From: Minisyncoccota bacterium
GTDB lineage: Bacteria; Patescibacteriota; Minisyncoccia; Minisyncoccales; RBG-13-42-11
Direction: 5' to 3'
Length of the DNA: 64,000 nucleotides
NCBI GenBank assembly: GCA_028712445.1
Contig: JAQTPY010000001.1
Location: 120,290 to 184,289 of the forward strand
Below are positions 2,919-49,694 of this stretch, piece after piece. Position 1 is the stretch's first letter; each line of letters opens with the position of its first letter. The position numbers and the translations under genes were made by a program. The notes beneath the pieces are model-generated. The model saw only the letters and a program-made list of their open reading frames with translations, was not told where the DNA came from and ran no database searches.

Positions 2919-3314
2919 ATGAAAAAGGTTTTTTGGGCAATAGTTTTTTCCTTAATAGTTTTGCCTCTTTTCACCCAGGCAGCTCCTTTGGTTCCCTGCG
3001 GAGGAGATGGCCAGGAAAAATGCACTTTTTGCCACCTTTTTGTTTTGGCTGACAATATAGTTGATTTTGTTTTGTTTAAAATAGTTCCCTGGATCGCTTT
3101 GGCTGTCACAGTCACTGGCGGCATTAATCTTTATTTTTCTTTAGGAAAACCGGAAGAGAGAAGCAGCGCTATAAAAAAACTAATTGCCGCTGCGGTCGGC
3201 TTTGTTATAGTCTATGCGTCTTTCCTTTTAATAGGTTATTTTTTTACAGTGATCGGGGTCAGCGAATGGACAGGCCTCGAAAACTGGTTTGAATACCCCT
3301 GTTTCCCGGAATAA
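2919..3314 (+). CDS. Small TrbC/VirB2-like (T4SS-pilin-like) membrane protein
   Basis: 131 aa. Signal peptide (..PLFTQA), a short Cys-containing head (PCGGDGQEKCTFC) and two long hydrophobic helices separated by a short polar loop. Same architecture as the ORFs at 32032 and 32590. Confidence 0.5.
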   Translation: MKKVFWAIVFSLIVLPLFTQAAPLVPCGGDGQEKCTFCHLFVLADNIVDFVLFKIVPWIALAVTVTGGINLYFSLGKPEERSSAIKKLIAAAVGFVIVYASFLLIGYFFTVIGVSEWTGLENWFEYPCFPE

Positions 3315-5210: not shown

Positions 5211-5279
5211 AAAGCAACTATACTTTACCAGAAAAAATCTGTTTTTTCAAGATTTATTTGAGAGTTTCTTTGTAGTGTG

Positions 5280-5350
5280 TCGGGGTGCTGAGAGTTGAAC
5301 TCAGGTCTCGTGTTCCCAAAACACGAATACTACCGTTGTACTACACCCCG
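5280..5350 (-). tRNA. tRNA-Pro(UGG)
   Basis: Manual cloverleaf: acceptor CGGGGTG/CACCCCG, anticodon stem CGTGT/ACACG, loop TTTGGGA, T arm CTGAG-TTCAACT-CTCAG. Confidence 0.85.
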
Positions 5351-5518
5351 AATAAAATCCCCCGACCCCTGGCTCAAAAAACCTTCGGTTTTTTGGCACG
5401 CTTCGCTCTCATTTTTTCCAATACGGGGGATTTTATTCTATCTGAATTTTGGGTTTGAGTCAATTTATCAATGTGATATAATAAACAAAGCTTTTATCTC
5501 TTAGAACGCGGTAAATGG

Positions 5519-6466
5519 ATGATTTTGAAAACCATAGCTGACCAATTAAATATTGCAGCTCAATGCAGAAAATATAATTTGTCTCTTTGGCAGTGCCCTC
5601 AGTTTATTTTTTTGGTAATGGGACTGATAATTATTTTTTCCAGTCTTTTTACTTATGCCATCGGCACCCGTTATATTTCCGATCCTTACATGGTGGCAAT
5701 AGTGGTTTTATTAGTAGCAAGCATCCTCTTTGTTTTATCGACAATCATTTCTCATAGTTTTGACAAGCTGGCTGAGGCCAGCAGAATGAAAACGGAGTTC
5801 GTTAATATCGTCTCTCATCAACTGAGAAGTCCCCTTTCTAATTTAAAATGGGTGATTGAATTATTATTTTCAGGAAGAATAGGCGCTGTTTCTGAAAAGC
5901 AGACAGAATACTTCAAGATTTTAAAAGAAAATAGTAGCCGGATGGAGGAACTTATCTCAGATTTACTCATTGTTTCCAGAATAGAACAGGGCAGATTTCC
6001 TCAACGGAAAGAGAAAATTTTCTTGAAAGACATAGTCCAAGGAGTAATTAAAAATAGTGAAATATTCGCACGCGCTTCAAACGTCCAAATTGAATTTAAA
6101 GCAGAGAACGATTTGCCCAGCGTATTTAACGACCCTTCCCAGGCAAAACTTATAGTTGAGAATCTTGTAGATAACGCCATTCGTTACACTAAGGAAAGAG
6201 GCAAAGTTGAAGTAAGTCTGGTGAAAAAGAAAAACCATCTCATTTTGTCTGTGAAAGACAGCGGGGTGGGAATCCCTAAAAATGATCAGAAATACATTTT
6301 TCAGAAGTTTTTTCGTTCAGCCAACGCTTTAAAGCACCAAACCGAAGGATCAGGACTGGGATTATATATAACCAGATCAATCATCGAAAAATTTAACGGC
6401 AGAATTAAATTTAACAGCCAGGAGGGTGTCGGGTCAACTTTCTTGGTCACCTTACCAATAAAATAA
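5519..6466 (+). CDS. Membrane sensor histidine kinase (HisKA + HATPase_c), no obvious periplasmic sensor domain
   Basis: 315 aa. Two TM helices. H-box FVNIVSHQLRSPL. N/G boxes DNAIRYT, DSGVGI, GSGLGL. Confidence 0.85.
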   Translation: MILKTIADQLNIAAQCRKYNLSLWQCPQFIFLVMGLIIIFSSLFTYAIGTRYISDPYMVAIVVLLVASILFVLSTIISHSFDKLAEASRMKTEFVNIVSHQLRSPLSNLKWVIELLFSGRIGAVSEKQTEYFKILKENSSRMEELISDLLIVSRIEQGRFPQRKEKIFLKDIVQGVIKNSEIFARASNVQIEFKAENDLPSVFNDPSQAKLIVENLVDNAIRYTKERGKVEVSLVKKKNHLILSVKDSGVGIPKNDQKYIFQKFFRSANALKHQTEGSGLGLYITRSIIEKFNGRIKFNSQEGVGSTFLVTLPIK

Positions 6467-6473
6467 TATCATT

Positions 6474-6845
6474 ATGACAAAAACAATTCTTTTTATCGAA
6501 GACGAATCTGCGCTCCAAAAAACTTTTGGAGAAGTTTTAACCCAGGAAGGATATTCAATGATCTCCGCTCTTGATGGAGAACTGGGACTAAGAATGGCTG
6601 AGTCAAAAAAGCCAGATTTGATCATTCTGGATTTAATCTTGCCAAGAATGAACGGATTCGAAGTCTTAAAATCTTTAAAAGAGAGCGAGGAAACAAAAAA
6701 CATACCGGTCATTGTTTTGACCAACCTGGGAAGCATGGAAGATGTTGATAAGGCCATATCTTTGGGGGCCACCACTTATTTGGTCAAAGCCGATTACAAG
6801 CTCGAGGAGGTTTTGGAAAAAATTGCAGCAATAATAAAACAGTAA
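6474..6845 (+). CDS. Stand-alone receiver-domain response regulator (CheY/PilH-like, no output domain)
   Basis: 123 aa. DE acidic pocket (IEDE), phospho-acceptor motif LIILDLILP, conserved T (VLTN) and K (KADY). Confidence 0.85.
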   Translation: MTKTILFIEDESALQKTFGEVLTQEGYSMISALDGELGLRMAESKKPDLIILDLILPRMNGFEVLKSLKESEETKNIPVIVLTNLGSMEDVDKAISLGATTYLVKADYKLEEVLEKIAAIIKQ

Positions 6846-6854
6846 ACTGCGTTT

Positions 6855-8609
6855 ATGCAAGTTGAATCGGAGCAGTTAAAGGCATTCCTTCTGGATGCCA
6901 AATTAATTGAGGAAGAGGATTTTGAGCGCGCCAGAAAGATTGCTCAAAAGAACAGCAAAAAAATTGATGATGTTTTGATTTCTGAAGGATTGGTTCCTCA
7001 GGATGCGCTAATTAAAATGAAGGCCTATATTTTAGGCATTCCTTTTGTCGATTTGGAAAAAGAAAAGATTGAAGAAGATATTTTAAAAATCATTCCCGAG
7101 CCCATAGCTCGTTCAAATAACATTGTCGCCTTCAGGAAAAAAGGAGATGATCTGGAGGTAGCCATGCTCGATCCGGACGATTTGAGAATGATTGAGTTTA
7201 TCAAGAAAACTTCTAATTTCAGGATTCTTCCGAGACTTACTACTCCCGAAAGCATCAAAAATGTTCTGCAGCAATATCAAAAAACTCTGCAGGCAGAATT
7301 CGGTGATATTATCAAAAAAGAAGCAGATGGAATAAAAGTGACAAAGGAAAGAGAAGGTTTTACCGAAGAGGAGGTAAATGATTTAAAGAAAATCGCTGAA
7401 GATTTGCCTGTGGTCAGAATAGTGGACACCCTTTTAAAGCACGCAATTTTAGAGAGATCTTCAGATGTTCATATTGAACCCACTAAAAAGGACGTCATTG
7501 TCAGATACAGGATTGACGGAGTTCTGAGGGATGCCATGACTTTGCCGAAACAGGCAGCTTCAGGCATTGTGGCCAGAATTAAAGTATTGTCCAATTTGAA
7601 GCTTGATGAACATCGTCTACCTCAAGACGGAAGGTTCAAGATCGAAACAGAAGATTATAAATACTCCGTCAGGGTTTCAATTTTGCCGGTTTTTGACGGG
7701 GAAAAGATCGTTTTAAGGCTTCTTTCAGAGACCGCTGAAGCTTACACTTTGGAACAATTGGGGTTATGGGATAAGTCTTTGGAAGATATTCAGTCAAATC
7801 TGAAAAAACCAGTGGGCATGATTTTAGTGACGGGTCCCACCGGATCAGGAAAGACGACCACTCTTTACTCAATGATGGAAATTTTGAATTGTCCCGGAGT
7901 CAACATTTCAACAATTGAAGATCCTGTTGAGTACAGGATGCCGAGAATCAATCAAACCCAGGTTAATCCAAAGATCGGGCTTACTTTTGCCTCAGGCCTG
8001 AGAGCTTTGGTGAGGCAAGATCCGAATGTCATTATGGTTGGGGAAATAAGAGACTCAGAGACAGCTTCTTTGGCAATAAATGCGGCTCTGACGGGCCATT
8101 TGGTTCTCTCTACTCTCCACACAACCTCAGCGGCCGGATCCATGCCCCGCTTGATCGACATGAAAGCAGAACCATTTTTAATTGCATCAACCCTAAATGT
8201 TATTTTAGCCCAGAGGCTGGTGAGGCGTCTCTGCGAGGAAAAAGAAAAATATAGTTTAAATGACGCTGAAATAAAAAATTTAAGGAAATATTGCGATCTA
8301 GACAGAATTATGGGAATACTTGAAGGAGAAAAATTGATTAAGCCTAAGCAATCAATCAAAGACATTGTTTTTTATCGGCCCAAGGCCTCAAAGTCTTCTC
8401 CTGAAGGATATAAGGGGAGAATAGGCATCTACGAAGTTTTGCCGGTCACAGAGACAATCAAAGAGTTAATCGTTAAAGAGGCGACTTCAGACCAAATTCA
8501 GGCTCAGGCTCAAAAGGAGGGAATGAGGACAATGATTGAAGATGGTTTTATTAAAGCGGTCCAGGGAGTCACTACCATAGAAGAAGTTTTAAGGGTTATC
8601 GCTGAGTAG
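6855..8609 (+). CDS. pilB: Type IV pilus / T2SS assembly ATPase (PilB/GspE family), set 1
   Basis: 584 aa. N-terminal T2SSE_N-like domain. Walker A GPTGSGKTTT, Asp box, Walker B/His box (VGEIRD, TGHLVLSTLHT). CxxC-type region reduced. Confidence 0.85.
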   Translation: MQVESEQLKAFLLDAKLIEEEDFERARKIAQKNSKKIDDVLISEGLVPQDALIKMKAYILGIPFVDLEKEKIEEDILKIIPEPIARSNNIVAFRKKGDDLEVAMLDPDDLRMIEFIKKTSNFRILPRLTTPESIKNVLQQYQKTLQAEFGDIIKKEADGIKVTKEREGFTEEEVNDLKKIAEDLPVVRIVDTLLKHAILERSSDVHIEPTKKDVIVRYRIDGVLRDAMTLPKQAASGIVARIKVLSNLKLDEHRLPQDGRFKIETEDYKYSVRVSILPVFDGEKIVLRLLSETAEAYTLEQLGLWDKSLEDIQSNLKKPVGMILVTGPTGSGKTTTLYSMMEILNCPGVNISTIEDPVEYRMPRINQTQVNPKIGLTFASGLRALVRQDPNVIMVGEIRDSETASLAINAALTGHLVLSTLHTTSAAGSMPRLIDMKAEPFLIASTLNVILAQRLVRRLCEEKEKYSLNDAEIKNLRKYCDLDRIMGILEGEKLIKPKQSIKDIVFYRPKASKSSPEGYKGRIGIYEVLPVTETIKELIVKEATSDQIQAQAQKEGMRTMIEDGFIKAVQGVTTIEEVLRVIAE

Positions 8610-8613
8610 TTTT

Positions 8614-9834
8614 ATGCCAAGTTATTCATACGTTGCCAAATCCATTTCCGGTGAAGAGAAAACCGGGAGCGCGGAGGCAAAAGATCTTCATCAACTGGCC
8701 AGGGCCTTAAGAGAGCAAGGTTTTATTTTGGTTCATGCTGTTTCTGAAAAAGAAAAAACTGCAGGAAGGAAAATCAGCTTTTCTATCCCATTTTTAGGAA
8801 GCGTGCCCTTGGAAGAAAAAATGATGTTTACTCGAAATCTTCAGGTGATGGTGGCTTCGGGTCTTTCTTTACCCAAAGCTTTGGCGGTTCTGTCTCTCCA
8901 AACAAAGAGCAATAAATTCAAAAAAGCGATAGATTCCATCAAGAATGAAGTAGTTGAGGGTAAAAATTTTTCTGATTCTCTGGCTGATCATTCCGAAATA
9001 TTCTCTGAGCTTTTTCAAAACATGATAAGAGTCGGAGAGGAAGCAGGAAATTTAGAGGAAGTTTTAACTGTTTTGGCCAGGCAAATGGAAAAAGAGCATG
9101 AACTGAAATCCAAAATACAGTCAGCTTTAATGTACCCCGCAGTTATAATTTCAGCGATGATCGGCATAGGCGTTTTAATGTTGATTATGGTTGTTCCAAA
9201 GCTCGCTGAAACTTTTGCTGAATTGGAAATAGAATTGCCTTTTACTACGCAACTTGTGATAAATGTCGGAGTTTTTCTGGCCACTAAGTGGTATTTCGGG
9301 TTGGCTTTGATTATAGCAATGGGAATTATTTTTTTATTGATTTCCAAAAGCATGGCTGGCAAGAAACTAATTGATGGTTTTGTTTTGCGCATTCCCATAG
9401 CATCGGTCCTCATCAAAAAATCAAATTCGGCTTCAACCATCAGAACTTTAAGCTCTCTGGTCGCGGCTGGCGTTCCCCTTGTCCGCTCTCTGGAGATAAT
9501 TTCAAACACACTTGGGAATGTATATTACAAAAAAGCAATTATTGAAGCTTCAGAAAAGGTAAAGAAAGGCGGGAGACTTTCCGAAGCGCTGGAACCCTAC
9601 GGAAATCTTTATCCAATAGTTGTTTTCCAGATGATTAAGGTGGGAGAAGAAACCGGGGAAACTGCAAAGATTCTATCGAAGCTTGCTGAATTTTTCGAAG
9701 AAGAAGTGGGAACCGCAGCCAGGAACTTGACCTCTATTATTGAGCCCGTTTTAATGCTGGTCATCGGCGTAGTTATAGGATTTTTTGCAATATCAATGGT
9801 CCAGCCAATGTATTCAATGCTAGATTCAGTTTAA
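8614..9834 (+). CDS. pilC: Type IV pilus / T2SS platform protein (PilC/GspF family), set 1
   Basis: 406 aa. Duplicated GspF domain pattern (FSRNLQVMV..GLSL.. and IRTLSSLVAAGVPL) with three TM segments. Confidence 0.85.
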   Translation: MPSYSYVAKSISGEEKTGSAEAKDLHQLARALREQGFILVHAVSEKEKTAGRKISFSIPFLGSVPLEEKMMFTRNLQVMVASGLSLPKALAVLSLQTKSNKFKKAIDSIKNEVVEGKNFSDSLADHSEIFSELFQNMIRVGEEAGNLEEVLTVLARQMEKEHELKSKIQSALMYPAVIISAMIGIGVLMLIMVVPKLAETFAELEIELPFTTQLVINVGVFLATKWYFGLALIIAMGIIFLLISKSMAGKKLIDGFVLRIPIASVLIKKSNSASTIRTLSSLVAAGVPLVRSLEIISNTLGNVYYKKAIIEASEKVKKGGRLSEALEPYGNLYPIVVFQMIKVGEETGETAKILSKLAEFFEEEVGTAARNLTSIIEPVLMLVIGVVIGFFAISMVQPMYSMLDSV

Positions 9835-11214
9835 ATGCAGACATCAAAAGGATTCAGTTTTATCGATGTTTTAGTGGGCATCTCCTTGATGCTTATTGTT
9901 TTTTTGGGAATTTTCGGGGCATACCAGCTGGGATTAAGAGTTATTCTCCAGTCAAAAAACAGGATTACAGCAACAGCTATTGCCAACCAGAAGATAGAGA
10001 TTATAAGAAATTTGCCATATAGAGACATTGGGACGACTCCTCATTCCATTGATGAGCCTGAAGGAAATATTTCTCAAACTGAAACAACAATCCGAAACAA
10101 TGTTGAATATTCAATAGAAACGAGAATAGCGTACGTTAATGACTGTTTTGATGGTCCGCAGAACAGCGAGTGTCCAACAGCGCCTTCGTCCGACAGTTGT
10201 CCGCGTGATTATAAGAGGGCGACTGTCGGGGTTTCTTGGCGCAATCCCAAACCAGGCAGCGTTTCTTTAACGACAGATATTTCTCCTAAAAGTCTAAATC
10301 AAGAGGAAGAGGAGTGCACCGGGGAAGCAGCGGGTGTCCTTTCAGTCACAGTTTTTAATGCTCTGGGCCAGGCAGTAGATTCTCCTTTAATTGAAATAAT
10401 TGATCCTGATTCAGAGATGGTGCTTTCTTTTTCCCAACCTATTTCGGGCAATCATGACTTTGTTTTTCCTTCAGGCACCTACAAAGTCAAAGTCAGCAAG
10501 AATAATTATAACACTTCCCAAACTTATGGCGCAGGTGATGTTTACCAGGGACAAATCATCGCAGAACCTTTAAAGTCCCACCCATCGGTTTATGAAGGAG
10601 ACCTTACTGAAATCGGTTTTAGTATTGATCAGGTGGGATCCTTCATGATTGAGACACGGGGAACTGCAGATCAAGGATATCCCCCTATTCACGATGTTCT
10701 TTTCCGCATGACGGGCAGCCAAACAGTAGGCAATAAAGAAGATGGCAGCCCGATCTATAAATATTCCGGGGATCATTTAACTAACGGCACAGCAGATATC
10801 ACCATAAGCGGTCTTGAATGGGATTCTTACAATTTTTTTGTTGATTCTTCCAGTTACGAACTGATAGGTTTTGAATCTCCCTTGGGATCCACGACTACCC
10901 AACCTGTGACACTTCTTCCTGATGAGAATAAGGAGCTAAGATTGATTTTGAAGGCAGAAAACACCCTTAATGCCACTGTCCGGGACGCCTCAAGCTCCCA
11001 GCCTGTTTTTGGGGCAGGAGTGAGATTATACCAAACTGGTTTAGGGTATGATGAAATTCAGCCCACCAATGCCAGCGGAACTACTCTCTTTTTGCCTCTC
11101 CAAGCCGAAATCTATAATTTTGAAATAGAGGCTTTAGGATACGCTAGCTCATCAGGATCGGTTTCTGTTTTGGGAGACGATGATTTAAATATTAATTTGA
11201 ATCCATTACCGTGA
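9835..11214 (+). CDS. Large pseudopilin-like protein with class III signal and beta-sandwich (CarboxypepD_reg-like) repeats
   Basis: 459 aa. N-terminus MQTSKG|FSFIDVLVGISLMLIVF, with D at +5 instead of E. Two or three segments match the G.V.D..G.P...A.V...Y.v.vs..GY pattern (e.g. LSVTVFNALGQAV..GTYKVKVSKNNY). Confidence 0.6.
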   Translation: MQTSKGFSFIDVLVGISLMLIVFLGIFGAYQLGLRVILQSKNRITATAIANQKIEIIRNLPYRDIGTTPHSIDEPEGNISQTETTIRNNVEYSIETRIAYVNDCFDGPQNSECPTAPSSDSCPRDYKRATVGVSWRNPKPGSVSLTTDISPKSLNQEEEECTGEAAGVLSVTVFNALGQAVDSPLIEIIDPDSEMVLSFSQPISGNHDFVFPSGTYKVKVSKNNYNTSQTYGAGDVYQGQIIAEPLKSHPSVYEGDLTEIGFSIDQVGSFMIETRGTADQGYPPIHDVLFRMTGSQTVGNKEDGSPIYKYSGDHLTNGTADITISGLEWDSYNFFVDSSSYELIGFESPLGSTTTQPVTLLPDENKELRLILKAENTLNATVRDASSSQPVFGAGVRLYQTGLGYDEIQPTNASGTTLFLPLQAEIYNFEIEALGYASSSGSVSVLGDDDLNINLNPLP

Positions 11215-11795
11215 GAAGAGCATTCACTTTGATAGAAACTTTGGTAACCATAGCTATTTTTGCTTTGACCATGGGAGTTGTTTCAACTTTTATTGTTTTG
11301 GGCTACAAAACTCAAAGTTATGCTTCTCAGCAGGCGGTAGCTATCGGGGAGGCGAGAAAAGGGATAGAAACTTTGGTTCGTGAAATAAGGGAGGCAAAAA
11401 GCGGCGAAGACGGTTCTTATGTTATCGAACAGGCAGATGATTATGAATTTATTTTTTATTCAAATATTGACGATGACTCCGCTTCCGAGAAAATAAGATA
11501 TTTTATTGACGGAACCAATTTTAAGAAAGGAGTCACTGATCCTTCGGGTTCTCCCCCGCAATATTTTCCTGCGTCTGAAAAAATCACTGTTTTGTCTGAG
11601 CACGTAGTAAACAGCCCCCCTGTTTTTCATTATTACGACGGAGATGGGCTGGAAATCGTCGAACTGCCGGCTCGTCCCAAGGATACGAAACTGATGAGGG
11701 TTTATCTGGTGGTTAACGTCGATCTTAGTAGGGCTCCCCAGAGCTATGAACTGGAATCTTCAGTTCAGATCAGAAATCTTAAAGATAATTTATAA
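11211..11795 (+). CDS. Prepilin-type N-terminal cleavage/methylation domain protein (minor pseudopilin)
   Basis: 194 aa. GTG start overlaps the upstream TGA. N-terminus MRRA|FTLIETLVTIAIFAL. Confidence 0.7.
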   Translation: MRRAFTLIETLVTIAIFALTMGVVSTFIVLGYKTQSYASQQAVAIGEARKGIETLVREIREAKSGEDGSYVIEQADDYEFIFYSNIDDDSASEKIRYFIDGTNFKKGVTDPSGSPPQYFPASEKITVLSEHVVNSPPVFHYYDGDGLEIVELPARPKDTKLMRVYLVVNVDLSRAPQSYELESSVQIRNLKDNL

Positions 11796-11805
11796 TTCCA
11801 CAAAT

Positions 11806-13191
11806 ATGTGGAAACCTTTTGAATTAAATTCAATGAAAAACAAAGGATCTATAATTACTTTAGTTCTGGTGTTCGGCTCGGTGTTTTTAATACTTTTATC
11901 AGGATTGCTGGGTTTTATTCTGATTCAGCACAGGCAGTCTCTTCAAAAAGTAGCGTGGAATGAAGCTTTGAATATAGCTGAAGCAGGCATAAATTATGCC
12001 AAATGGCATCTTTTGCATTCTCCGGAAGATTATGATTTTGAGGGAGCTCAAGAATATGCGGATATCGGTCAGTTTCAGCTTGATATTATTTCTCCTTCAG
12101 GCTGCGATCAGGCAGCTCAGATTACTTCCACGGGTTTTGCTTCCAGTTTTCCTCAAACGCAAAGAAAAGTAAGGATAAAATATTCCAAACCCTCTCTGTC
12201 TCAATATGCTTTCTTAACTGATACCAACGTCTGGTTTGGAGAAGAAGAGTCTTTAAAAGGGCCGGTTCACTCAAACGGAGGAATCAGAATGGATGGGAAT
12301 CAGAATTCTCTTTTTACGTCAGATGAAGAAAATTATCTTTGCGGGTCAGAACATGGTTGTGACCCGGCAGAGTATAAGCCGGGAATATGGGGAGCTGGAC
12401 AGGGACAATATGAGGGGCTTTGGCAGTTTCCGGTTCCAACGGTTGATTTTGATTTAATTACTCAGGATTTAGACACGTTGAAAGCTGAAGCATTGGCTTC
12501 GGGCATATATATCACCCAGCCAGTCGATCACGGATATCATATCAGGTTTAACGCCAACGGAACCATGGATGTTTTTCGGGTAAAAGGCGTTAAGCAAAAA
12601 GTTTGGGGATGGAATGGTGTAGATTGGGTTTATGAATCAAATGATATTGATAATGAGGAATGGCAGGCAAATTACGTTCTTCCGGTAAACTGTTCTCCGA
12701 TTTTCGTTGAGAATAATGTTTGGGTGGATGGAACCGTTAACGGAAGAGCTGTTCTGGTCGCAGCCGAATTGCCTGAAAAGTCTCAAAAAATGAAAAAAAT
12801 CATCATCAATGGGAACATAGACTACGCTGATTCCGGCTCATCTCTGGGGCTGATTAGTCAAAGCGATGTTTTGATTCCTCTTTATTCTCCCGATAATTTA
12901 TCAATAAGCGCAGCCATGCTTGCTCAGAATGGCCATGTTTTCAGGTATTATTATCCTGATTGGTCATCAGAACCTTATAATACTTATGCCTTAAGGAATT
13001 CAATTACAACTTACGGTTCGATAATAACAAAGATGTTTTGGACTTTCAGCTGGGTAGACGACGAAGAAGATGTAACATCCGGTTATCAAAACACAGATAT
13101 GAATTATGATCCAAGGCTGACCTATAGCCCGCCTCCTCGTTTTCCAACCAGCGGAGAATATGAATTCCTGGAGTGGGAAGAGGTAAAATAA
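11806..13191 (+). CDS. Large PilX-like / tip-associated pilus protein (hypothetical)
   Basis: The track ORF starts at 11746 and overlaps the previous gene. I prefer ATG 11806 (or 11833, MKNKGSIITLVLVFGSVFLILL), just after the upstream stop. One N-terminal hydrophobic helix followed by about 430 aa of unknown fold. Confidence 0.5.
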   Translation: MWKPFELNSMKNKGSIITLVLVFGSVFLILLSGLLGFILIQHRQSLQKVAWNEALNIAEAGINYAKWHLLHSPEDYDFEGAQEYADIGQFQLDIISPSGCDQAAQITSTGFASSFPQTQRKVRIKYSKPSLSQYAFLTDTNVWFGEEESLKGPVHSNGGIRMDGNQNSLFTSDEENYLCGSEHGCDPAEYKPGIWGAGQGQYEGLWQFPVPTVDFDLITQDLDTLKAEALASGIYITQPVDHGYHIRFNANGTMDVFRVKGVKQKVWGWNGVDWVYESNDIDNEEWQANYVLPVNCSPIFVENNVWVDGTVNGRAVLVAAELPEKSQKMKKIIINGNIDYADSGSSLGLISQSDVLIPLYSPDNLSISAAMLAQNGHVFRYYYPDWSSEPYNTYALRNSITTYGSIITKMFWTFSWVDDEEDVTSGYQNTDMNYDPRLTYSPPPRFPTSGEYEFLEWEEVK

Positions 13192-13193
13192 AA

Positions 13194-13211
13194 GACCCTC
13201 ATATGAGGGTC
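13194..13211. terminator. Bidirectional terminator hairpin between convergent genes
   Basis: Perfect palindrome GACCCTCA-TA-TGAGGGTC, immediately after the stop at 13191 and before the minus-strand stop at 13219. Confidence 0.55.
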
Positions 13212-13218
13212 GCGCCTA

Positions 13219-13707
13219 TTAATTCTTCATATTCCGAGAAAAGAAATCCGTAGGCACTTGAACTTGGAATATTTTCTTTTGGGTATCTATTCCTCTAATC
13301 CAGAGCAATTCTCCAGGAGAGAGAGCGTCAAAGAATTGATCTGATGAAAACTCCACTCTTCTGTTGTGCTTACCTTCTCTGTAGAAGAATACGGTAGTGG
13401 CATCGATGGAGATAACGGGTTGGAGGGCTCCCGTACTGTAAGTAAAGCTTTTCGACTCCTTGTTTATATCTTTTACATAACCACTATAATGGTAACCGTA
13501 ATAAAGATCGATTGTTGCGGGCAACGTTCTCCACCCTTCGTAGCTTGTCGTTCTGGCTGGAGCAACTTGCGAGACGAGAGGCGGAGTCACTTCGCTGCCG
13601 GGGTTTCCTCCTGGCGGACCGCCAATTGGAGCTCCGACACCTCCTGCCCCCATGACAATTAGAATCAGTGCGACAATGAGAAGGAATGCGAATTTAGCTT
13701 TTTTCAA
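13219..13707 (-). CDS. Hypothetical membrane-anchored/secreted protein
   Basis: 162 aa. N-terminal helix FAFLLIVALILIVMGAGG, then a Gly/Pro-rich linker. No recognisable domain. It is the only minus-strand gene inside pilus set 1. Confidence 0.5.
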   Translation of the reverse strand: MKKAKFAFLLIVALILIVMGAGGVGAPIGGPPGGNPGSEVTPPLVSQVAPARTTSYEGWRTLPATIDLYYGYHYSGYVKDINKESKSFTYSTGALQPVISIDATTVFFYREGKHNRRVEFSSDQFFDALSPGELLWIRGIDTQKKIFQVQVPTDFFSRNMKN

Positions 13708-13804
13708 TTTCTCACCTCCTAAATTTCTGATTTTAAAGATATATTATATGAATATAAAAATCAAGCCCTGGGCTATTTTGCTTCATTTTAGTATAATATT
13801 ATAA

Positions 13805-14899
13805 ATGTTTAATTTTTTAGAGTTAGAGCCGGAATCTTTCGGTTTAGATTTTTCAGACTCTTATTTAAGAATAGTAAAACTTGAAAAGAAAAGAGATGGT
13901 TTTGACGTAGCCTCCTATGCGGAACGAAAGATTGATCCGGATATCATAAAAAATGGAGAAGTAAAAAAAGAAGAAGAATTGGCTAAAGCTATCAGAGAAA
14001 CAGTAAACGCTGCAAAGGGGAAAAAGGTTCGCACAAATTACGTTGTTGCTTCTCTTCCTGAAAACAAATCTTTTCTTCAAGTTATCCAGATGCCCTTGAT
14101 TTCAAAGGAAGATTTGAAGGCAGCTGTTGTTTATGAGGCGGAAAATTACATTCCACTGCCCATAGAAGAAGTATATTTTGATTCTGAAATTGTCACTCCA
14201 ATAGAAAACCATCTTAATCATTATGATGTTTTAATTTCTGCTTTGCCTAAGAAAACTGTGAATCTTTATCTTTCTTCTCTAGAGAAGGCTGGCTTAAGGC
14301 CTCTTGCTCTGGAAACAGAATCTTTTTCAATAACCAGAGCTTTGGTCAAAAATCAGACTGCGCCATCCCCCGTTGCAATAATTGATTTTGGGCAGACAAA
14401 AACAATGGTTATTATTTTCTCAGGAAAATCATTAAGGTTTTCTTTTTGCGCTCCGGTGGGAGCATATGATTTTGATGAAGTTATATCTAAGGCGTTGAAA
14501 GTTAATTTGAAAGAAGCAGAATATCTGCGAGCGCAGTACGGTTTGGAGCAAAAAGAAAATAAAGGAAAGGAGGTTTTCGAAGCCCTTTATCCTGCCCTTA
14601 GCGTTTTGGCTGATGAAATCAAAAAATATATTGACTATTATGAAAACCATTCTGCCCACGAACATCTTTCAACTTCGGGAAAAAAGATATCAAAGATTCT
14701 TTTGTCCGGGCCAGGAGCTGACATTAAAGGTGTGACAAAATATTTTTCCGAAAGATTTTTAACAAAGGCTGAAATTGGCGATCCCTGGGTTAATGTTTTA
14801 ACCGACAAGCAGAGAAAATTTATAGAGCCCTCATTCAAGGGGTCAATAAATTTTGCTTCAGCTTTGGGACTGGCCCTGAGGGGGGTAAAAAATAAGTAA
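13805..14899 (+). CDS. pilM: Type IV pilus assembly protein PilM (actin-like ATPase fold), set 1
   Basis: 364 aa. Starts FGLDFSDSYLRIVKL. Length and position (followed by PilN/PilO-like genes) match PilM. Paralogous to the ORF at 42017, which has the same length. Confidence 0.8.
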   Translation: MFNFLELEPESFGLDFSDSYLRIVKLEKKRDGFDVASYAERKIDPDIIKNGEVKKEEELAKAIRETVNAAKGKKVRTNYVVASLPENKSFLQVIQMPLISKEDLKAAVVYEAENYIPLPIEEVYFDSEIVTPIENHLNHYDVLISALPKKTVNLYLSSLEKAGLRPLALETESFSITRALVKNQTAPSPVAIIDFGQTKTMVIIFSGKSLRFSFCAPVGAYDFDEVISKALKVNLKEAEYLRAQYGLEQKENKGKEVFEALYPALSVLADEIKKYIDYYENHSAHEHLSTSGKKISKILLSGPGADIKGVTKYFSERFLTKAEIGDPWVNVLTDKQRKFIEPSFKGSINFASALGLALRGVKNK

Positions 14900-14911
14900 A
14901 GATTGTTTTAA

Positions 14912-15451
14912 ATGATAAATCTGCTTCCACAATTAAAAAAAGAAGAGCTGCGACAAGAGGAAAACTGGAAACTGATAATTGTCTTGGGGATTTTTGCTTT
15001 GTTTTTCTTGATATCTTTGTCTTTGATTTTTTTCTCAATAGAGAACTATATTTTAGGTGAATCAAAAGTTCAAAAAATAATATTAAGTCAGAAAGAAAAA
15101 GAATTCGAGAATTCCAACATCAAAGATTTAAATGAAAAATTAATCAATTTCAATCAGACTGTCTCTCGATTAGATTATTTTTATGGCAATCAGAAAAAGA
15201 TCGGTGACATTTTGAGTAAAATTTCCGAAACTGTTCCTTTAGGAGTAGTAATAAACAATCTTTCACTAGGTCTGAAAAGCAAAAAATTTACTTGCGGTAT
15301 TAGCGGTTCTTCTCCGAATAGAGAATTGCTTCTGGAGTTTAAAGAAAATTTGGAGGAAAATGAGAGTTTTAAAGATATTAATTTCCCACCGGGGAGTTGG
15401 GTTGAGTCAAAAGATATAGATTTCGCTTTAAGTTTTAGCGTAGATGAATAA
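14912..15451 (+). CDS. pilN: PilN-like bitopic pilus alignment protein, set 1
   Basis: 179 aa. Conserved N-terminal INLLP motif, then a single TM helix and a coiled-coil/ferredoxin-like tail. Confidence 0.7.
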   Translation: MINLLPQLKKEELRQEENWKLIIVLGIFALFFLISLSLIFFSIENYILGESKVQKIILSQKEKEFENSNIKDLNEKLINFNQTVSRLDYFYGNQKKIGDILSKISETVPLGVVINNLSLGLKSKKFTCGISGSSPNRELLLEFKENLEENESFKDINFPPGSWVESKDIDFALSFSVDE

Positions 15452-15462
15452 TATAAATAAAA

Positions 15463-15984
15463 ATGTTGCTAAACAATAAAATTAAGATATCTGTCGCCTT
15501 AATTGTTTTTTTGGCAGTAATAATGGCAGTTTTCCTTGTCCGTCCGATTTTAAGCGGAATTAAAGCCAGCTCGGAAGAATTGAAAAAACAAAGGGAAGAG
15601 TCTTACATGATTGAAAGTAAAATATCCAGTCTCGAAGATTTTAGAACCATTTACAATGGCTTGGAAGGTTTTCTTGAAGAAATCGACGGTTTATTTGTTG
15701 ATTCAGACGTGCCCATCGTTTTTATCAATTTTCTCGAGAACAAGGCCAAAGATTCAAATCTTGAAATTAAAATTTCTTCTAATGTCACAAAAACAGATAA
15801 AAAAGATTTCTGGCCTTTCCTCGTTTTCCAGATCAATGCAAAGGGTTCATTTGTTAATTATTTAAAATTTTTGCACAAGATAGAAAACGGTTCTTATCTG
15901 GCAGAGGTGGAGAATGTTAATGTTTTAAGAAGCGGAGAAGATAATGTTTCGGCCAGTTTTTCCGTAAAGGTATTTGCAAAGTGA
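15463..15984 (+). CDS. pilO: PilO-like bitopic pilus alignment protein, set 1
   Basis: 173 aa. One N-terminal TM helix, a coiled coil, and its position after pilN. Confidence 0.6.
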   Translation: MLLNNKIKISVALIVFLAVIMAVFLVRPILSGIKASSEELKKQREESYMIESKISSLEDFRTIYNGLEGFLEEIDGLFVDSDVPIVFINFLENKAKDSNLEIKISSNVTKTDKKDFWPFLVFQINAKGSFVNYLKFLHKIENGSYLAEVENVNVLRSGEDNVSASFSVKVFAK

Positions 15985-15991
15985 AAAAGAA

Positions 15992-16276
15992 ATGATTAAG
16001 GTAAGATTTAAATTTAAAAAAGTTGCATTTAAAAGGAATCTAAGCGCGATTGTCAGAAATCTTTTCAGGTCCTTTATTGCGATCTTTTTTGCCTCTCTTT
16101 TTATAGGAAGCATGGTTTTTTATCAGTATGTTTTAAAGCCAAATAATGAAAGCCCCAAGATTTCAGAAGAGGTAATAAAGTTTGACGAAAAAACATTCCA
16201 GAGGGTTTTGGAAAAACTGCAGGAGAGAAATGAAAAATTAAAAACAGAAAGATCAGATTATCACAGCCCCTTCTAA
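15992..16276 (+). CDS. Small bitopic protein closing pilus set 1 (PilP-like position)
   Basis: The track ORF starts at TTG 15974, overlapping pilO. ATG 15992 (MIKVRFKF) is preferred. One TM helix (FIAIFFASLFIGSMVFY). C-terminus ..DYHSPF. Confidence 0.5.
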   Translation: MIKVRFKFKKVAFKRNLSAIVRNLFRSFIAIFFASLFIGSMVFYQYVLKPNNESPKISEEVIKFDEKTFQRVLEKLQERNEKLKTERSDYHSPF

Positions 16277-16331: not shown

Positions 16332-16403
16332 GCCCCCGTAGTTCAATGGATAGAATAGGAACCTTCTAAGTTCTAGATCGAGGTCCGATTCCTCGCGGGG
16401 GCA
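16332..16403 (+). tRNA. tRNA-Arg(UCU)
   Basis: Acceptor GCCCCCG/CGGGGGC, anticodon stem GGAAC/GTTCT, loop CTTCTAA, T arm CGAGG-TCCGATT-CCTCG. The T-loop has C at position 55. Confidence 0.8.
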
Positions 16404-16473
16404 CACTTCGACTCGCCTTGGGCTCGCTGGCTAGGGAGGTGAAGTGCCCTGAGTTTATTCGAAGGGCTACCTT

Positions 16474-32031: not shown

Positions 32032-32472
32032 ATGTCTAGATTATTTTTAATCGGATTAGCGGCTGTTATTGTTTTTTTTGCTTTTCCTCCCTTGCGGGCC
32101 AATGCTGATTGTTCTGTAGCTGGAGAGGGCTGCGATGATTTTATCGGCGAAAGCTGTTGCAACGGTTATACTTGCGGCCCTGGCAATATTTGCGTAGCAA
32201 AGAATAGCGCAGAAGGCATTCAAAATCCTTTAAAATGGGATAATTTTGATCAGTTGGTTGATGCCATCCTTAGGTTCCTTTTGATAGCAGGTTTTGTGAT
32301 CGCCCCCATACTCTTCGGGGTGGCGGGTGTAATGATTGTGACATCGAGCGGGAATGAAAAGCAGGTGACTCAGGCAAGGAATATTATAATTTATACAGCC
32401 ATAGGATTAACAGTGATTCTTTTAGCTAAAGCTCTGGTATCTGTAATAGAAAAGGCAATAGGTGTAGAATGA
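32032..32472 (+). CDS. TrbC/VirB2-like (T4SS-pilin-like) protein with a knottin-like Cys-rich head
   Basis: 146 aa. Signal peptide (..LRANA). Head is DCSVAGEGCDDFIGESCCNGYTCGPGNICV. Two hydrophobic helices are separated by SSGNEKQVTQARN. Confidence 0.55.
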   Translation: MSRLFLIGLAAVIVFFAFPPLRANADCSVAGEGCDDFIGESCCNGYTCGPGNICVAKNSAEGIQNPLKWDNFDQLVDAILRFLLIAGFVIAPILFGVAGVMIVTSSGNEKQVTQARNIIIYTAIGLTVILLAKALVSVIEKAIGVE

Positions 32473-32589: not shown

Positions 32590-33018
32590 ATGAAAAAATT
32601 ATTAGCTTCATTATTCTTATTAAGCTTTGTTGCAGTATTGATTTTTCCGCTGGTCGCCAGCGCTGATGTTAGTGTTCCTACTCCAAATTCATGCAAAATG
32701 AAAAGGACGGTGACAATAGGTGGGGGTGATGGTGCCGGTGGCGTAACCTGCACGAACGGCACATCCTATGCGATTGACGGAGACAAATCGATCTGTTGCG
32801 TAATGAACACAATCTATAATTTCACTGATTGGTTCTTCGTTATTCTGGTAGGAATAGCCACCATCTTTATTATCGTAGGAGCCATGAACATTATCTTTGG
32901 CGCAGGGTCTGGGAAGATGGATTCTGGCAGAAATTACATAATGTATGCCGCTATCGGTTTGGCAGTAGCCTTCATAGCAAGAGCTATCCCCGGACTGATC
33001 GTCAGAATAATTCAGTAA
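32590..33018 (+). CDS. TrbC/VirB2-like (T4SS-pilin-like) protein, second tandem paralogue
   Basis: 142 aa. Signal peptide (..LVASA). Cys-containing head (C..TC..ICC). Two hydrophobic helices are separated by GAGSGKMDSGRN. Confidence 0.55.
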   Translation: MKKLLASLFLLSFVAVLIFPLVASADVSVPTPNSCKMKRTVTIGGGDGAGGVTCTNGTSYAIDGDKSICCVMNTIYNFTDWFFVILVGIATIFIIVGAMNIIFGAGSGKMDSGRNYIMYAAIGLAVAFIARAIPGLIVRIIQ

Positions 33019-36853: not shown

Positions 36854-37705
36854 TCATTGAATAACTAATTTTTCGTATTTTTGCAAATCTTCTGCATAAT
36901 GCTGAATAATTTCCGAAGAAGATAGCGCCTTGCTGTAAATTCGCGGCTCATCAATGGAGCCAGAGAATCGGCCGATAAGCAGATTGCCAAAACTTGAATT
37001 ATTTATCAGAGCTCCAGTTATATTTCTTTCTCTTTTTTTATCGCCATTAACATAAAAAGCCATTAAATTTCCATTTTTTACTCCGACTATGTGGTACCAA
37101 GTATTTGTTTGAAAATCCATCAAGCTGTGCACTCCCTCGTGGCCAATCCAGGAAGAGTCGCTGCTTACATCGTTGCTTGTTTTAAAAAGGAAATACAATT
37201 TATCTCCCGCCCAATCGCCTCGATGAAAAATTTGATAGAGGCCGTTATTCAACAATTCTTCATTCGCAGACCAGGAATTTGCCTTAAACCAGAATTCAAT
37301 TGTTATATCGCCGACAATATTTAATTCTGCTCCGTTACCGCAATTGACGTACTGACTGCTTCCGCTAAAACTCAAAGCATTTCCAAGAGTTCCTGTGGCG
37401 GTGACGGCGCCGTTGATAAATCCGTTATTTCCATATCCTGAGGCATCATAGGCCGTGGAGCCCGAGGTCTCATCAAAACTCCACATCCCAACCGCTTCAA
37501 CTCCTAATGCATGCCGAAGCCTGGCTGAGAATTCGAGGTTCTTGGCTATTCTGGCTTTTTCTCTTGATCCTTGAGTGGCAACCAAAACGATTGAAGACAA
37601 AAGACCTATAATTGATATTACTACCAGAAGCTCAATGAGGGTGAATCCCCTTAGAAGATTTTTGCTGGGCCTTATGTTGCCGGATGCGGCCCTTAATGAT
37701 TTCAT
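36854..37705 (-). CDS. Type IV pilin-like protein with a C-terminal LamG/concanavalin-A-like domain
   Basis: 283 aa. Long leader, then G|[22 protein letters not shown]-terminal pattern ..W.HIVGV.NG..M.FYVNG......G.IDEPRIYSKALSSSEI is typical of Laminin_G_3. Confidence 0.7.
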   Translation of the reverse strand: MKSLRAASGNIRPSKNLLRGFTLIELLVVISIIGLLSSIVLVATQGSREKARIAKNLEFSARLRHALGVEAVGMWSFDETSGSTAYDASGYGNNGFINGAVTATGTLGNALSFSGSSQYVNCGNGAELNIVGDITIEFWFKANSWSANEELLNNGLYQIFHRGDWAGDKLYFLFKTSNDVSSDSSWIGHEGVHSLMDFQTNTWYHIVGVKNGNLMAFYVNGDKKRERNITGALINNSSFGNLLIGRFSGSIDEPRIYSKALSSSEIIQHYAEDLQKYEKLVIQ

Positions 37706-37763: not shown

Positions 37764-37841
37764 GACCCTATCGTCTAGCCTGGTCTAGGACGCCAGGTTT
37801 TCATCCTGGCAACCGGGGTTCAAATCCCCGTAGGGTCGCCA
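37764..37841 (+). tRNA. tRNA-Glu(UUC), CCA encoded; the terminal A is the A of the next ATG
   Basis: Acceptor GACCCTA/TAGGGTC, anticodon stem CCAGG/CCTGG, loop TTTTCAT, T arm CGGGG-TTCAAAT-CCCCG, then G-CCA. Confidence 0.85.
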
Positions 37842-42016: not shown

Positions 42017-43111
42017 ATGTTTAACTTTTTGCAGATTTTCCTTCCTCAAAGATTTTTGGGAATAGACGTCGGGACATCTTTTCTTAAAATTGCAGAAGTT
42101 TCAAGATTCGGAAACCGGAGGAAGCTAGAAAACTACGGCTTTCTTTCAGCTCAGGTGTTATATGAGAAGCCTTTCAGGACTTTTGACAAAAATACTCTTC
42201 TTCTTTCAAGCGATGATGTAAGCCGAGCCATAAGAGCAATAATGGAGGAAGCTAAAATCAAAACCAATCAGGTTGTTTTTTCGATTCCTGATTTTTCAAC
42301 TTTCTTCACTAATTTTGAACTGCCCCAAATGACCAAGGAGGAATTGCCCGAAGCTGTGCGTTATGAGGCCAAGCAGCACATTCCCTTTCCATTAAGCGAG
42401 ATGACGTTGGATTGGAAACTGGTTCACGATAAGGCCGTGTTGCAGAAAGGAGAAAATTTAAAAATCCTTCTGGCCGCCGTCCCCAACGAAGTGATCAATC
42501 AATATAATTCAATAGCCGAAAAAGCCAATTTGAAGCTTTATGCTCTGGAAGCGGAAGTTTTCAGCTTAATAAGGTCTCTGGTCAGCGAGGATGAAAAATT
42601 ACCATTGGCCATAATCGATATTGGAGCTCAAAGCACCACTTGCAGCATAATTGTTAAGAGAAGTCTTTATGGTTCTCACAGTTTTAATATGTCAGGAAGC
42701 AACCTTATTGCCGCTGTTTCCAAGGGTTTAAGCATTGACTATAACAAGGCGCAGGAATTGGTGATAAAATTCGGAATAAGTTCCGGGGAAATTCAAAATG
42801 AAAATAATCCCAGAGAAATTCTTCTTCCTTTAATAGATGTTATTTTAAGCGAGACAGATTCTGTTTTAAATAATTTCCGTAAAGAGAAAAATCTGCCAGC
42901 AGAAGGAATTTCAAAAGTCATAATTGCCGGAGGAATGGCATTGATACCCGGCTTAAAAGAATATTTCGCTGAGCATTTGAAAGCAGAGACAGTAATTGCC
43001 AATCCTTTTACCCACCTTTTTTACCCCCCGATTTTAGAAAATAATCTTCAGGAAAAAGGCCCCTCTTTTTCCATAGCGGTGGGAGCAGCCCTTCGCGGCT
43101 TGGAATATTAG
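42017..43111 (+). CDS. pilM: Type IV pilus assembly protein PilM, set 2
   Basis: 364 aa. LGIDVGTSFLKIAEV start. Same length and layout as the ORF at 13805. Followed by PilN/PilO-like genes. Confidence 0.8.
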   Translation: MFNFLQIFLPQRFLGIDVGTSFLKIAEVSRFGNRRKLENYGFLSAQVLYEKPFRTFDKNTLLLSSDDVSRAIRAIMEEAKIKTNQVVFSIPDFSTFFTNFELPQMTKEELPEAVRYEAKQHIPFPLSEMTLDWKLVHDKAVLQKGENLKILLAAVPNEVINQYNSIAEKANLKLYALEAEVFSLIRSLVSEDEKLPLAIIDIGAQSTTCSIIVKRSLYGSHSFNMSGSNLIAAVSKGLSIDYNKAQELVIKFGISSGEIQNENNPREILLPLIDVILSETDSVLNNFRKEKNLPAEGISKVIIAGGMALIPGLKEYFAEHLKAETVIANPFTHLFYPPILENNLQEKGPSFSIAVGAALRGLEY

Positions 43112-43128
43112 GTATATAATATTTAAAT

Positions 43129-44233: not shown

Positions 44234-44243
44234 TTTTCAAAAC

Positions 44244-44576: not shown

Positions 44577-44586
44577 TCATTCAAAA

Positions 44587-46314: not shown

Positions 46315-46325
46315 TTAATAAATTT

Positions 46326-46706: not shown

Positions 46707-46724
46707 ATTTTACATATAACTCTT

Positions 46725-47789: not shown

Positions 47790-47834
47790 ATGAAGTTTAA
47801 TTATGATTCCCGCAAGCGGGTCCCTATTAATTAA

Positions 47835-49037: not shown

Positions 49038-49124
49038 AAGTTTTTAATTGAGTTTTCCACATACCCTCCCTTGCCTTCTTGTGCTAATATTACTTAATTA
49101 AAGGTCATTATTAATAAAAAAAAT

Positions 49125-49610: not shown

Positions 49611-49694
49611 AGTTTGATAGTAAATATATTTTTAGCAAAGGTCGATTAGATAACGATTCCGTTCCGCAAATCAGCGAACGGCGAAAGAATAAAT

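Follow-up and report, generated by a model that had tools for sequence, protein, structure and literature searches.

The genome of a Minisyncoccota bacterium (Patescibacteriota; contig JAQTPY010000001.1) carries two sets of type IV pilus (T4P) genes within one 64,000-nucleotide stretch, which we call the window. Here we describe set 1 (window positions 5519-16276). Sequence comparison with set 2 (42017-53118) indicates that set 1 is a second machine in its own right, intact and of ancient divergence. We consider it likely that it encodes a complete, functional machine of the type IVa pilus (T4aP) type in a monoderm-style cell, equipped with an initiation or tip complex of three pilins of its own; this judgement covers both the architecture and the assembly model. 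The locus had been singled out in a first-pass annotation, whose reader worked from the sequence letters and the translations of open reading frames (ORFs) only, without database searches. Our protein family calls come from Pfam and NCBIfam, and our tRNA calls from ARAGORN and Rfam.

Set 1 lies between two tRNA genes, tRNA-Pro(TGG) upstream (5279-5350, minus strand; ARAGORN and Rfam) and tRNA-Arg(TCT) downstream (16332-16404, plus strand; ARAGORN). Every gene is intact, the junctions are tight or overlapping, and there are no frame breaks. The genes encode, in order, a histidine kinase (HK), a response regulator (RR) consisting of a receiver (REC) domain only, PilB1, PilC1, three pilins of 459, 194 and 452 residues (P459, P194 and P452), an ORFan on the reverse strand, PilM1, PilN1, PilO1 and a 100-residue bitopic protein; all but the ORFan are on the plus strand. 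In the NCBI annotation the locus tags are PHW72_00715-00730. The extension ATPase PilB1 (6855-8609) matches Pfam T2SSE (9e-125) and MshEN (5e-16), and the platform protein PilC1 (8614-9834) matches two copies of T2SSF (1e-57), both with NCBIfam agreement. The actin-like PilM1 (13805-14899) matches PilM_2 (7e-41) and scores 178.7 bits against TIGR01175 (cutoff 133). Support from hidden Markov models (HMMs) is weak for PilN1 (14912-15451; Pfam PilN 1.6e-3) and PilO1 (15463-15984; full-length PilO match, E=0.042), and position and topology support both; PilN1 moreover begins with MINLLP, a motif of the PilM-binding type, and PilO1 occupies a conserved position and matches PilO2 of set 2 by BLASTP (3.9e-6). 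The final gene of the operon (15974-16276) encodes, by its sequence, a small basic bitopic protein. Gene content and order are those first claimed, and the third protein with a class III signal is 452 residues long.

The operon is widely conserved. P452 has more than 1,700 relatives in a 90%-clustered collection, the best 120 of which are 50-75% identical to it, and a profile search of a 50%-identity representative library returned 339 cluster representatives at E≤1e-30. In a scan that took one genome per species, 361 species genomes encoded P452 relatives, and we fetched 80 loci with 10 kb on either side of each. The titles of the relatives name Nealson-, Gribaldo-, Portnoy-, Wildermuth-, Kuenen-, Kerfeld- and Falkowbacteria, Paceibacter normanii and Microgenomatus. 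Many other titles ('uncultured Gammaproteobacteria', 'Candidatus Saccharibacteria' and 'Omnitrophota'; loci L014, L033, L037, L038, L041 and others) look like placeholders or mis-binning and are unfit for judging taxonomic distribution.

The core order PilB1-PilC1-P459-P194-P452-PilM1-PilN1-PilO1, with or without the small protein, is kept in the 80 loci with median gaps of 0-27 bp. The position of PilN1 is conserved in 60 loci, and orthologues of the 100-residue bitopic protein come after PilO1 in at least 14. PilB proteins from these loci score higher against PilB1 than against PilB2 in 56 of 57 cases, among them every one of full length; the exception (L050) is a fragment at a contig end. 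Neither PilT nor an A24 peptidase is encoded within 10 kb in any of the 80 loci, nor among 115 neighbouring genes scanned. Likewise, 66 of 68 loci have no extra class III pilin-like ORF within 10 kb; in the other two the ORF is a genuine short pilin (L032) and a 32-residue fragment. The neighbours of the operon are housekeeping genes (MraY, an HtrA-like protease, RNase Y). As for the co-occurrence check proposed at the outset, within these 10-kb surroundings the operon recurs in the 80 inspected loci without a PilT or A24 peptidase of its own, and has a short pilin nearby in one.

The two sets in the window have diverged deeply. They share 45% identity in PilB, 30% in PilC, 30% in PilM and 25% in PilN. 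PilB1 scores 463 bits against PilB2 and scarcely less (411 bits) against PilB of Myxococcus xanthus. Compared with a group of 58 PilB1-type sequences, PilB2 shows 38-46% identity; identity within the group is 41-100%. The placement of PilB by HMM and PDB bit scores and by identity ranges shows deep divergence and does not prove that the PilB1 clade is monophyletic. It is scarcely credible that set 1 is no more than a duplicate of set 2, redundant or decaying and without a function of its own. Such a duplicate could explain why set 1 has no PilT, PilD or shaft pilin, and why PilB1 has lost its zinc-binding cysteines. However, each of the 11 conserved genes is intact and their coupling is tight, identity between the paralogues is only 25-45%, and hundreds of species have kept the operon although their genomes are reduced. 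Moreover, the ATPase motifs of PilB1 (Walker A, Walker B and His box in the alignment) are intact, and half of the PilB1 orthologues keep the four cysteines. The view of set 1 as a second machine, rather than a recent degenerate copy, holds.

What class of machine is it? Set 1 has the PilB with an MshEN-type N-terminal domain, the PilC and the separate PilM, PilN and PilO that are found in T4aP systems; it has no PilT, major pilin or prepilin peptidase of its own and no PilQ secretin. The best PDB matches of PilB1 are the T4aP PilB proteins of M. xanthus and Geobacter (397-411 bits), ahead of GspE (338 bits) and BfpD (103 bits), while its score against TIGR02538 (537) lies under the equivalog cutoff (676). 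From these scores both PilB proteins of the window appear to be T4aP-type, and not GspE-, BfpD-, TadA- or ComGA-type. We considered three other classes and rejected them. For type IVb pilus (T4bP) and Tad systems, the BfpD score stands against 411 bits for PilB, and the TadA family reaches 41.6 bits against a cutoff of 373. For the competence (ComG) pilus, ComGA scores 257.5 against a cutoff of 300 and ComGB 139.5 against 240, PilM, PilN and PilO are present, and there is no short pilin. For a type II secretion system (T2SS), we found no GspG, GspC, GspD secretin or fused GspL and GspM, with PilM, PilN and PilO in their place.

The absences first reported are borne out in the locus: neither Pfam nor NCBIfam finds PilT, a prepilin peptidase, a short pilin or a secretin in set 1. 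The claim that neither set has a secretin stands as well, as Pfam Secretin matches no scanned window ORF of 100 or more residues. An envelope of the monoderm type would lead one to expect this.

The first-pass annotation had also raised the possibility of a pseudopilus or secretion device, and this fares less well. In that reading, the three large pilins would form a short stub, a piston that pushes proteins or the cap itself through the wall or S-layer, in the manner of a secretin-less T2SS. The operon here and in about 80 related loci lacks a major pilin and a retraction ATPase, the cap is GspK-like, and the NCBIfam score of PilB1 against GspE nearly equals that against PilB. Yet T2SS operons always carry GspG together with GspC, D, L and M, whereas set 1 has a separate PilM and PilN, and no GspG, GspC or GspD. 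Moreover, PilB1 with its N-terminal domain is closer to T4aP PilB than to GspE in the PDB, and the operon has housekeeping neighbours with no linked secretion-substrate genes. We know of no secretin-less T2SS in monoderms, and we regard this alternative as very unlikely.

The structural model, Foldseek and a profile search together suggest that P452 (11833-13191) is a cap pilin of the PilK/GspK/ComZ type. Its ORF is open from 11746, and orthologues and the NCBI annotation place the start at MKNKG/SIITLV (11833; here and below the slash marks the cleavage site). The N-terminus, KNKG/SIITLVLVF, has no acidic residue at position 5 (no Glu5). The AlphaFold2 (AF2) model (pLDDT 87.5) has an N-terminal helix (residues 2-62) and a four-stranded pilin sheet; residues 127-424 then form a beta-solenoid some 300 residues long, and a last strand (444-450) closes the chain. 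Thus P452 has, in sequence and model, both the helix without Glu5 and the pilin sheet of ComZ/PilK-type proteins, and its secondary-structure order fits a solenoid inserted before the last strand. This fit is at the level of order, with a TM-score of 0.27. Searched against the PDB with Foldseek, the model has one strong match, Thermus thermophilus ComZ (6QVI; E=8.9e-9, probability 1.0, at that TM-score). The next matches are ice-binding proteins (E about 0.1), which are also relatives of the ComZ solenoid (PMC6561018). At the sequence level, a broad P452 profile finds ComZ as its top PDB match with marginal significance (E=0.056), aligning the AEAG motif and the pilin sheet; a profile of close homologues finds nothing meaningful among PDB sequences. 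No Pfam or NCBIfam family matches P452 above threshold.

ComZ is a cap pilin of the GspK-like kind that lacks Glu5. A large triangular beta-solenoid precedes its last strand; the protein is predicted to sit at the pilus tip with a partner minor pilin, and binds both DNA and that minor pilin, PilA2 (Salleh et al. 2019, PMC6561018). P452 shares the lack of Glu5, the GspK-like pilin domain and, in its model, a large solenoid followed by a final strand, and it too would sit at the tip with a minor-pilin partner. The Thermus model also resembles set 1 in requiring no dedicated retraction ATPase. There are differences. Thermus is a diderm with a PilQ secretin, whereas set 1 has none; Thermus uses one machine (PilF, PilC and PilMNO) for both of its pilus types and encodes its four competence pilins beside the major pilin gene; and P452 is very acidic and only marginally similar to ComZ in sequence.

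Within P452, an invariant block (H146, S147, N148, G149, G150, I151, R152, D154, G155, Q157 and N158) and four cysteines are unchanged in 27 sequences. In one reading that such conservation favours, the tip would carry an enzyme whose solenoid degrades glycan or wall material, breaching host envelopes or extracellular polymeric substances. A beta-solenoid protein is typically a hydrolase or a lyase, a point made in the ComZ study (PMC6561018). Against this, P452 matches no enzyme family in Pfam, NCBIfam or the PDB, and the invariant block is located in the solenoid's first coils, beside the pilin domain, where an interface with P194 or P459 is equally possible. We find a tip-borne enzyme highly improbable.

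Two further pilins are encoded immediately before the cap. P459 (9835-11214) has a class III signal (KG/FSFID) and a C-terminal CarboxypepD_reg domain. Its AF2 model (pLDDT 89.7) shows a pilin domain of about 150 residues followed by three beta-sandwich domains of the CnaB or CarboxypepD_reg kind. The top Foldseek matches are the Bacillus anthracis TIE protein, SdrD B repeats, BcpA, PitA and SpaA, so that the sandwiches correspond to CnaB-type stalk domains of Gram-positive pilins and MSCRAMMs. Family members have a conserved N-terminal 60% and differ in how many C-terminal domains follow. The gene for P194 (11211-11795) begins within the last 4 bp of the P459 gene. P194 bears a class III signal with Glu5 (RA/FTLIE) and matches Pfam N_methyl and TIGR02532; a P194 profile searched against the PDB finds the generic N-terminal pilin helix and no relative of the globular part. 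By analogy in size, order and signal peptide, P459 and P194 may be the I- and J-type partners of the cap. The three proteins were first described as giant pseudopilins. That they are pilins with class III signals stands; their description becomes that of a putative PilI/J/K-type trio, with a ComZ/GspK-like cap and a CnaB-stalk pilin according to the models.

How might such a trio work? In a recently proposed model, a PilI-PilJ dimer recognizes a folded PilK-type pilin, the last sheet strand of which is supplied in cis or in trans, and the resulting trimer licenses polymerization; PilK homologues in which a large insertion precedes the C-terminal strand occur in Tad pili and in the competence pili of Thermus and Vibrio (Ellison et al. 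2026, PMC13533445). The GspI-J-K and PilI-J-K complexes resemble set 1 in that the minor-pilin trio is encoded together and is expected to template polymerization, and their K-type member lacks Glu5, like P452, and has a closing beta-strand in cis after a large insertion, as P452 would. They differ in that set 1 has no H-type linker pilin, and in that P459 has three additional beta-sandwich domains.

We propose a corresponding mechanism for set 1. PilB1 would be the motor, PilC1 the platform, and PilM1, PilN1 and PilO1 with the small bitopic protein the alignment complex. P194 and P459 would bind the folded P452 cap; with the P452 solenoid inserted, as its model suggests, before the last strand of the sheet, the closing strand would be supplied in cis. 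The P452-P194-P459 trimer would then license polymerization on PilC1, driven by PilB1, as in the PilI-J-K model. Shaft pilin and prepilin peptidase would come in trans. The finished filament would differ from the set-2 pilus mainly at its tip, where a rigid conserved solenoid cap would sit with a variable CnaB-like stalk, and it would operate with no dedicated retraction ATPase in set 1. In the sub-lineage to which this window belongs, HK would phosphorylate RR, which would switch the PilB1 motor or the platform on or off.

Several points weigh against this scheme. The match to ComZ has a low TM-score and is marginal in sequence. The pairing of the last P452 strand with the pilin sheet is deduced from secondary-structure order alone, and the trimer from analogy only. 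There are just three minor pilins, with no clear GspH/FimU-like linker. The sharing of PilD and shaft pilin rests on absence, seen within the 64-kb window. As for RR acting on PilB1, the evidence is one of adjacency only, and the HK-RR head is missing from the more distant half of the loci.

Candidates for the parts that set 1 lacks are encoded in the window. Set 2 encodes PilM, PilN, PilO, PilB, a REC-only RR, PilT, PilC, two short pilins, PilD and four minor pilins (Pfam). Its PilD prepilin peptidase (50309-51085, plus strand; Pfam) is the sole A24 peptidase in the window. Its two short pilins of the major type (161 and 153 residues; 49125-50156, plus strand; Pfam) have GAST contents of 0.44 and 0.35, the top values among the pilus proteins scored, and are candidate shaft subunits for either machine. 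Since no PilT, PilD or short pilin belongs to the operon in the inspected loci (a short pilin lies beside one), dependence in trans is the natural reading. We infer that PilD of set 2 processes the set-1 pilins in trans; the cleavage context of P194 (RA/FTLIE) is common to it and a set-2 minor pilin (51082-51582; KA/FTLIE).

A further shaft candidate lies outside both sets. An orphan gene for a 283-residue pilin (36854-37705, minus strand) stands alone beside the leucyl-tRNA synthetase gene, between the two pilus sets. The N-terminus of the protein is of the major-pilin type (RG/ junction) and near-identical to those of the set-2 major pilins, and its C-terminal part is a Laminin_G_3/ConA-like lectin domain (E=1e-20), an arrangement similar to that of the modular pilins with lectin domains known from Streptococcus sanguinis. 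Either filament might include this protein as a subunit. The first-pass annotation held that the parts missing from set 1 are encoded only in set 2. This is right for PilT, the A24 peptidase and the two short pilins; the orphan lectin pilin means, therefore, that pilins are not confined to set 2.

Set 1 is headed by a two-component pair. HK (5519-6466; Pfam HisKA 8e-15, HATPase_c 5e-29) has two N-terminal transmembrane helices separated by a loop of about seven residues, followed directly by HisKA and HATPase_c with no PAS or HAMP domain. Judged by its sequence, this architecture is of the intramembrane-sensing type. The H-box reads SHQLRSP. RR (6474-6845; Pfam Response_reg alone, 1.5e-23) is CheY-like and has the acidic pocket E9/D10 as well as D53, T83 and K105 of a phosphorylatable receiver; its closest PDB relative is the stand-alone regulator RR468 of Thermotoga maritima. 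Because RR has no output domain and its gene directly precedes pilB1, we infer post-translational control of the motor or platform. The pair lies directly 5' of PilB1 in 22-27 related loci, all in the closer sub-clade. The description of set 1 as a two-component-headed locus is therefore correct here and does not extend to the operon in general.

CheY-like regulators of T4P motors, such as PilG and PilH of Pseudomonas and the PilG/PixG-type proteins of cyanobacteria, are presumed to act post-translationally. As in set 1, these proteins, PilG and PilH belonging to the Chp system, are single REC domains linked to T4P motor genes. The Chp system is a CheA-based chemosensory pathway, whereas set 1, known from its genes alone, has a minimal membrane pair of the HK853/RR468 type.

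The motor itself varies in a zinc motif. In the alignment PilB1 has no tetracysteine (CCCC) zinc motif, whereas PilB2 keeps it. Among 50 PilB1 orthologues with enough upstream sequence, 23 retain CCCC and none of these has an RR gene upstream; 22 have RR directly upstream and none of these has CCCC; the other 5 have neither. This coincidence may reflect one clade-level event and not repeated co-evolution, and so we regard it as no more than a lead. A REC-only RR is encoded in set 2 as well (46326-46706, plus strand); it is 39% identical to that of set 1, and its gene lies between PilB2 and PilT with no kinase gene in the set. One may speculate that the set-1 kinase serves both regulators and switches between the two machines.

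The MshEN domain of PilB1 was a candidate for another form of control. MshEN domains that bind cyclic di-GMP (c-di-GMP) have the motif RLGxx(L/V/I)(L/V/I)xxG(L/V/I)(L/V/I)xxxxLxxxLxxQ. In PilB1 (residues 7-31), judged by eye, the Arg and both Gly are replaced, and the domain scores 20.8 bits against NF053729, for which the cutoff is 38. We rejected c-di-GMP control by this route.

What does the tip capture? Our best guess, by analogy with ComZ, is extracellular DNA, a tentative view that we place somewhat below an even chance. It is favoured by the relationship to ComZ, by how strongly the cap is conserved among lineages whose hosts presumably differ, and by the fact that set 1 lacks a retraction ATPase of its own, in common with Com pili and the Thermus model. 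Four observations count against it. All three set-1 pilins are strongly acidic (net charges of -30, -10 and -30 for P459, P194 and P452; family medians -15, -9 and -27), though ComZ itself has no positive patches (PMC6561018). No DNA-uptake gene (ComEC, ComEA, DprA or RecA) is linked to the operon among the 115 neighbouring genes of related loci. The PilT-less system of the saccharibacterium TM7x serves host binding and not competence (PMC11623550). Finally, the variable CnaB-like stalk of P459 looks adhesin-like.

The last two of these points lead to the other possible function, attachment to a host. The machine and tip would be the same, and the variable P459 stalk together with the solenoid cap would be an adhesin that binds the host surface. 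The C-terminal domains of P459 match stalk domains of Gram-positive adhesins and pilins, and they vary in number in a fast-evolving protein of 221-1526 residues. By score ratios across the loci, P194 and P452 keep about as much score as PilC1 whereas P459 diverges much faster, with about 8% retained in distant loci against about 32% for P452 and PilC1. Related loci insert an immunoglobulin (Ig)-like (Big_3_5) surface protein into the operon, beta-solenoids are common adhesin folds, and in TM7x it is the PilT-less pilus that promotes host binding. On the other hand, P452 and P194 keep 50-75% identity between lineages that presumably live on different hosts, which is unusual for a host-specific adhesin; the sole characterized structural relative of the cap, ComZ, is a DNA receptor; and CnaB-like domains are usually stalks, not binding modules. 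We regard host attachment as possible, if doubtful, and as only slightly less probable than DNA capture.

A more ambitious version of the DNA-capture reading can be put forward, and we think it unlikely as a whole. Set 1 would be the dedicated nucleic-acid capture pilus of Patescibacteria, derived from a T4aP and operating with neither secretin nor PilT, with the ComZ-like cap as the long-sought DNA receptor that feeds ComEC; in Paceibacteria-type lineages an envelope-sensing kinase would act through the CheY-like RR to switch on a PilB that has no zinc finger. If true, it would provide an extracellular DNA receptor for cells unable to make nucleotides, and would mean that the zinc finger was traded for control by a regulator.

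A second T4P machine without PilT and PilD in a Patescibacteria cell is already known from Saccharibacteria. TM7x (Nanosynbacter lyticus) makes a second, thin pilus, T4P-2, from a machine locus that lacks PilT and PilD and has its major pilin elsewhere (Grossman et al. 2024, PMC11623550). T4P-2 is, like set 1, a second locus of T4aP type (PilB2, PilC2, PilM2, N2 and O2) in a Patescibacteria genome; it too needs genes located elsewhere and coexists with a complete system that contains PilT. The two differ in several respects. The minor and major pilins of T4P-2 are in a separate locus, whereas the three tip pilins of set 1 are inside the machine operon. The TM7x tip candidate PilX2 is a beta-propeller, whereas the set-1 cap is a ComZ-like solenoid. 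The T4P-2 locus carries recA/recX and no two-component pair, whereas set 1 has HK-RR. The T4P-2 locus is not conserved even across Saccharibacteria (PMC11623550), and we liken it to set 1 by content and not by orthology.

The ComG pilus offers another comparison. It resembles set 1 in being monoderm-type, in having neither secretin nor retraction ATPase, and in DNA capture as a candidate function. It differs in its short ComGA, which lacks an N-terminal domain, in the absence of PilM, PilN and PilO, and in the presence of ComGC in the operon; PilB1 and PilC1 fall below the ComGA and ComGB cutoffs, as given above. Our literature search, the coverage of which was incomplete and which is no proof of novelty, returned no description of the set-1 operon, its tip proteins or its two-component head. 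Within the same limits, it returned no paper that ties ComZ to Patescibacteria, reports the breadth of the operon beyond Saccharibacteria or describes a ComZ-like cap family.

The remaining features of the locus are accessory or regulatory. The ORFan (13219-13707, minus strand) encodes 162 residues with an N-terminal transmembrane or signal segment and a Gly/Pro-rich linker. It matches itself alone among 5.8 billion proteins and is absent from 79 of the 80 related loci. It fills an accessory slot between P452 and PilM1 and is outside the conserved system. This junction exceeds 300 bp in 10 of 71 loci. Six loci (L010, L012, L014, L016, L022 and L025) place a forward gene for a membrane-anchored protein of about 300-336 residues there; the only one scanned, from L010 (11374-12336; 320 residues), has a Big_3_5 Ig-like domain. 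A close relative, L018, has a reverse ORF with a transmembrane segment and a Gly-rich region in the slot (11411-11971, minus strand), with no sequence similarity to the ORFan. Between the convergent P452 and ORFan genes, a GC-rich palindromic hairpin (13194-13211), found by pattern matching only, looks like a bidirectional terminator. Upstream of the operon, a promoter-like site, TTGAGT-16-(TG)TATAAT (5455-5482, plus strand), lies 37 bp 5' of the HK start. This pattern match from a consensus scan has an extended -10 element and agrees at 10 of 12 consensus positions, which ranks it second among the plus-strand matches of the region.

We also noted other features of the window. One set-2 minor pilin (51586-52212, plus strand) includes a type I dockerin domain (E=2e-12), which is unusual as a pilin module, and an IS200-like Y1 transposase gene (53270-53986, plus strand) directly follows the final set-2 pilin gene. 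Three small T4SS_pilin (PF18895) genes are scattered on the plus strand (2919-3314, 32032-32472 and 32590-33018); the first of these comes after a gene for a PKD-domain protein (1586-2914). An ORF that runs past the window end (57322-64000, plus strand; at least 2,226 residues) has no significant Pfam domain, with an N-terminal HTH_17 match below threshold, and probably encodes a giant surface protein of a type typical for Patescibacteria. Three plus-strand ORFs (69-983, 994-1593 and 37841-39376; 304, 199 and 511 residues) are without any Pfam match. The window contains 19 tRNA genes, several of them beside pilus loci, and no rRNA or other Rfam family at the gathering threshold.

Patescibacteria make up perhaps a quarter of bacterial diversity. 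They depend on hosts and on nucleotide import, and have few conserved surface machines, pili being among these. To our knowledge, experimental work on their pili has so far been limited to Saccharibacteria. In the set-1 operon we see a pilus system apart, conserved deeply throughout lineages of the Parcubacteria, ABY1 and Microgenomates types, whose tip proteins have no Pfam or NCBIfam family of their own. The P452 cap, its I/J-like partners and the HK-RR switch provide concrete targets for asking whether these cells capture DNA or hosts. Moreover, the two machines of this bacterium probably share one peptidase and one shaft pilin while using different initiation complexes, an arrangement that bears on how the tip may confer specificity on the machine.

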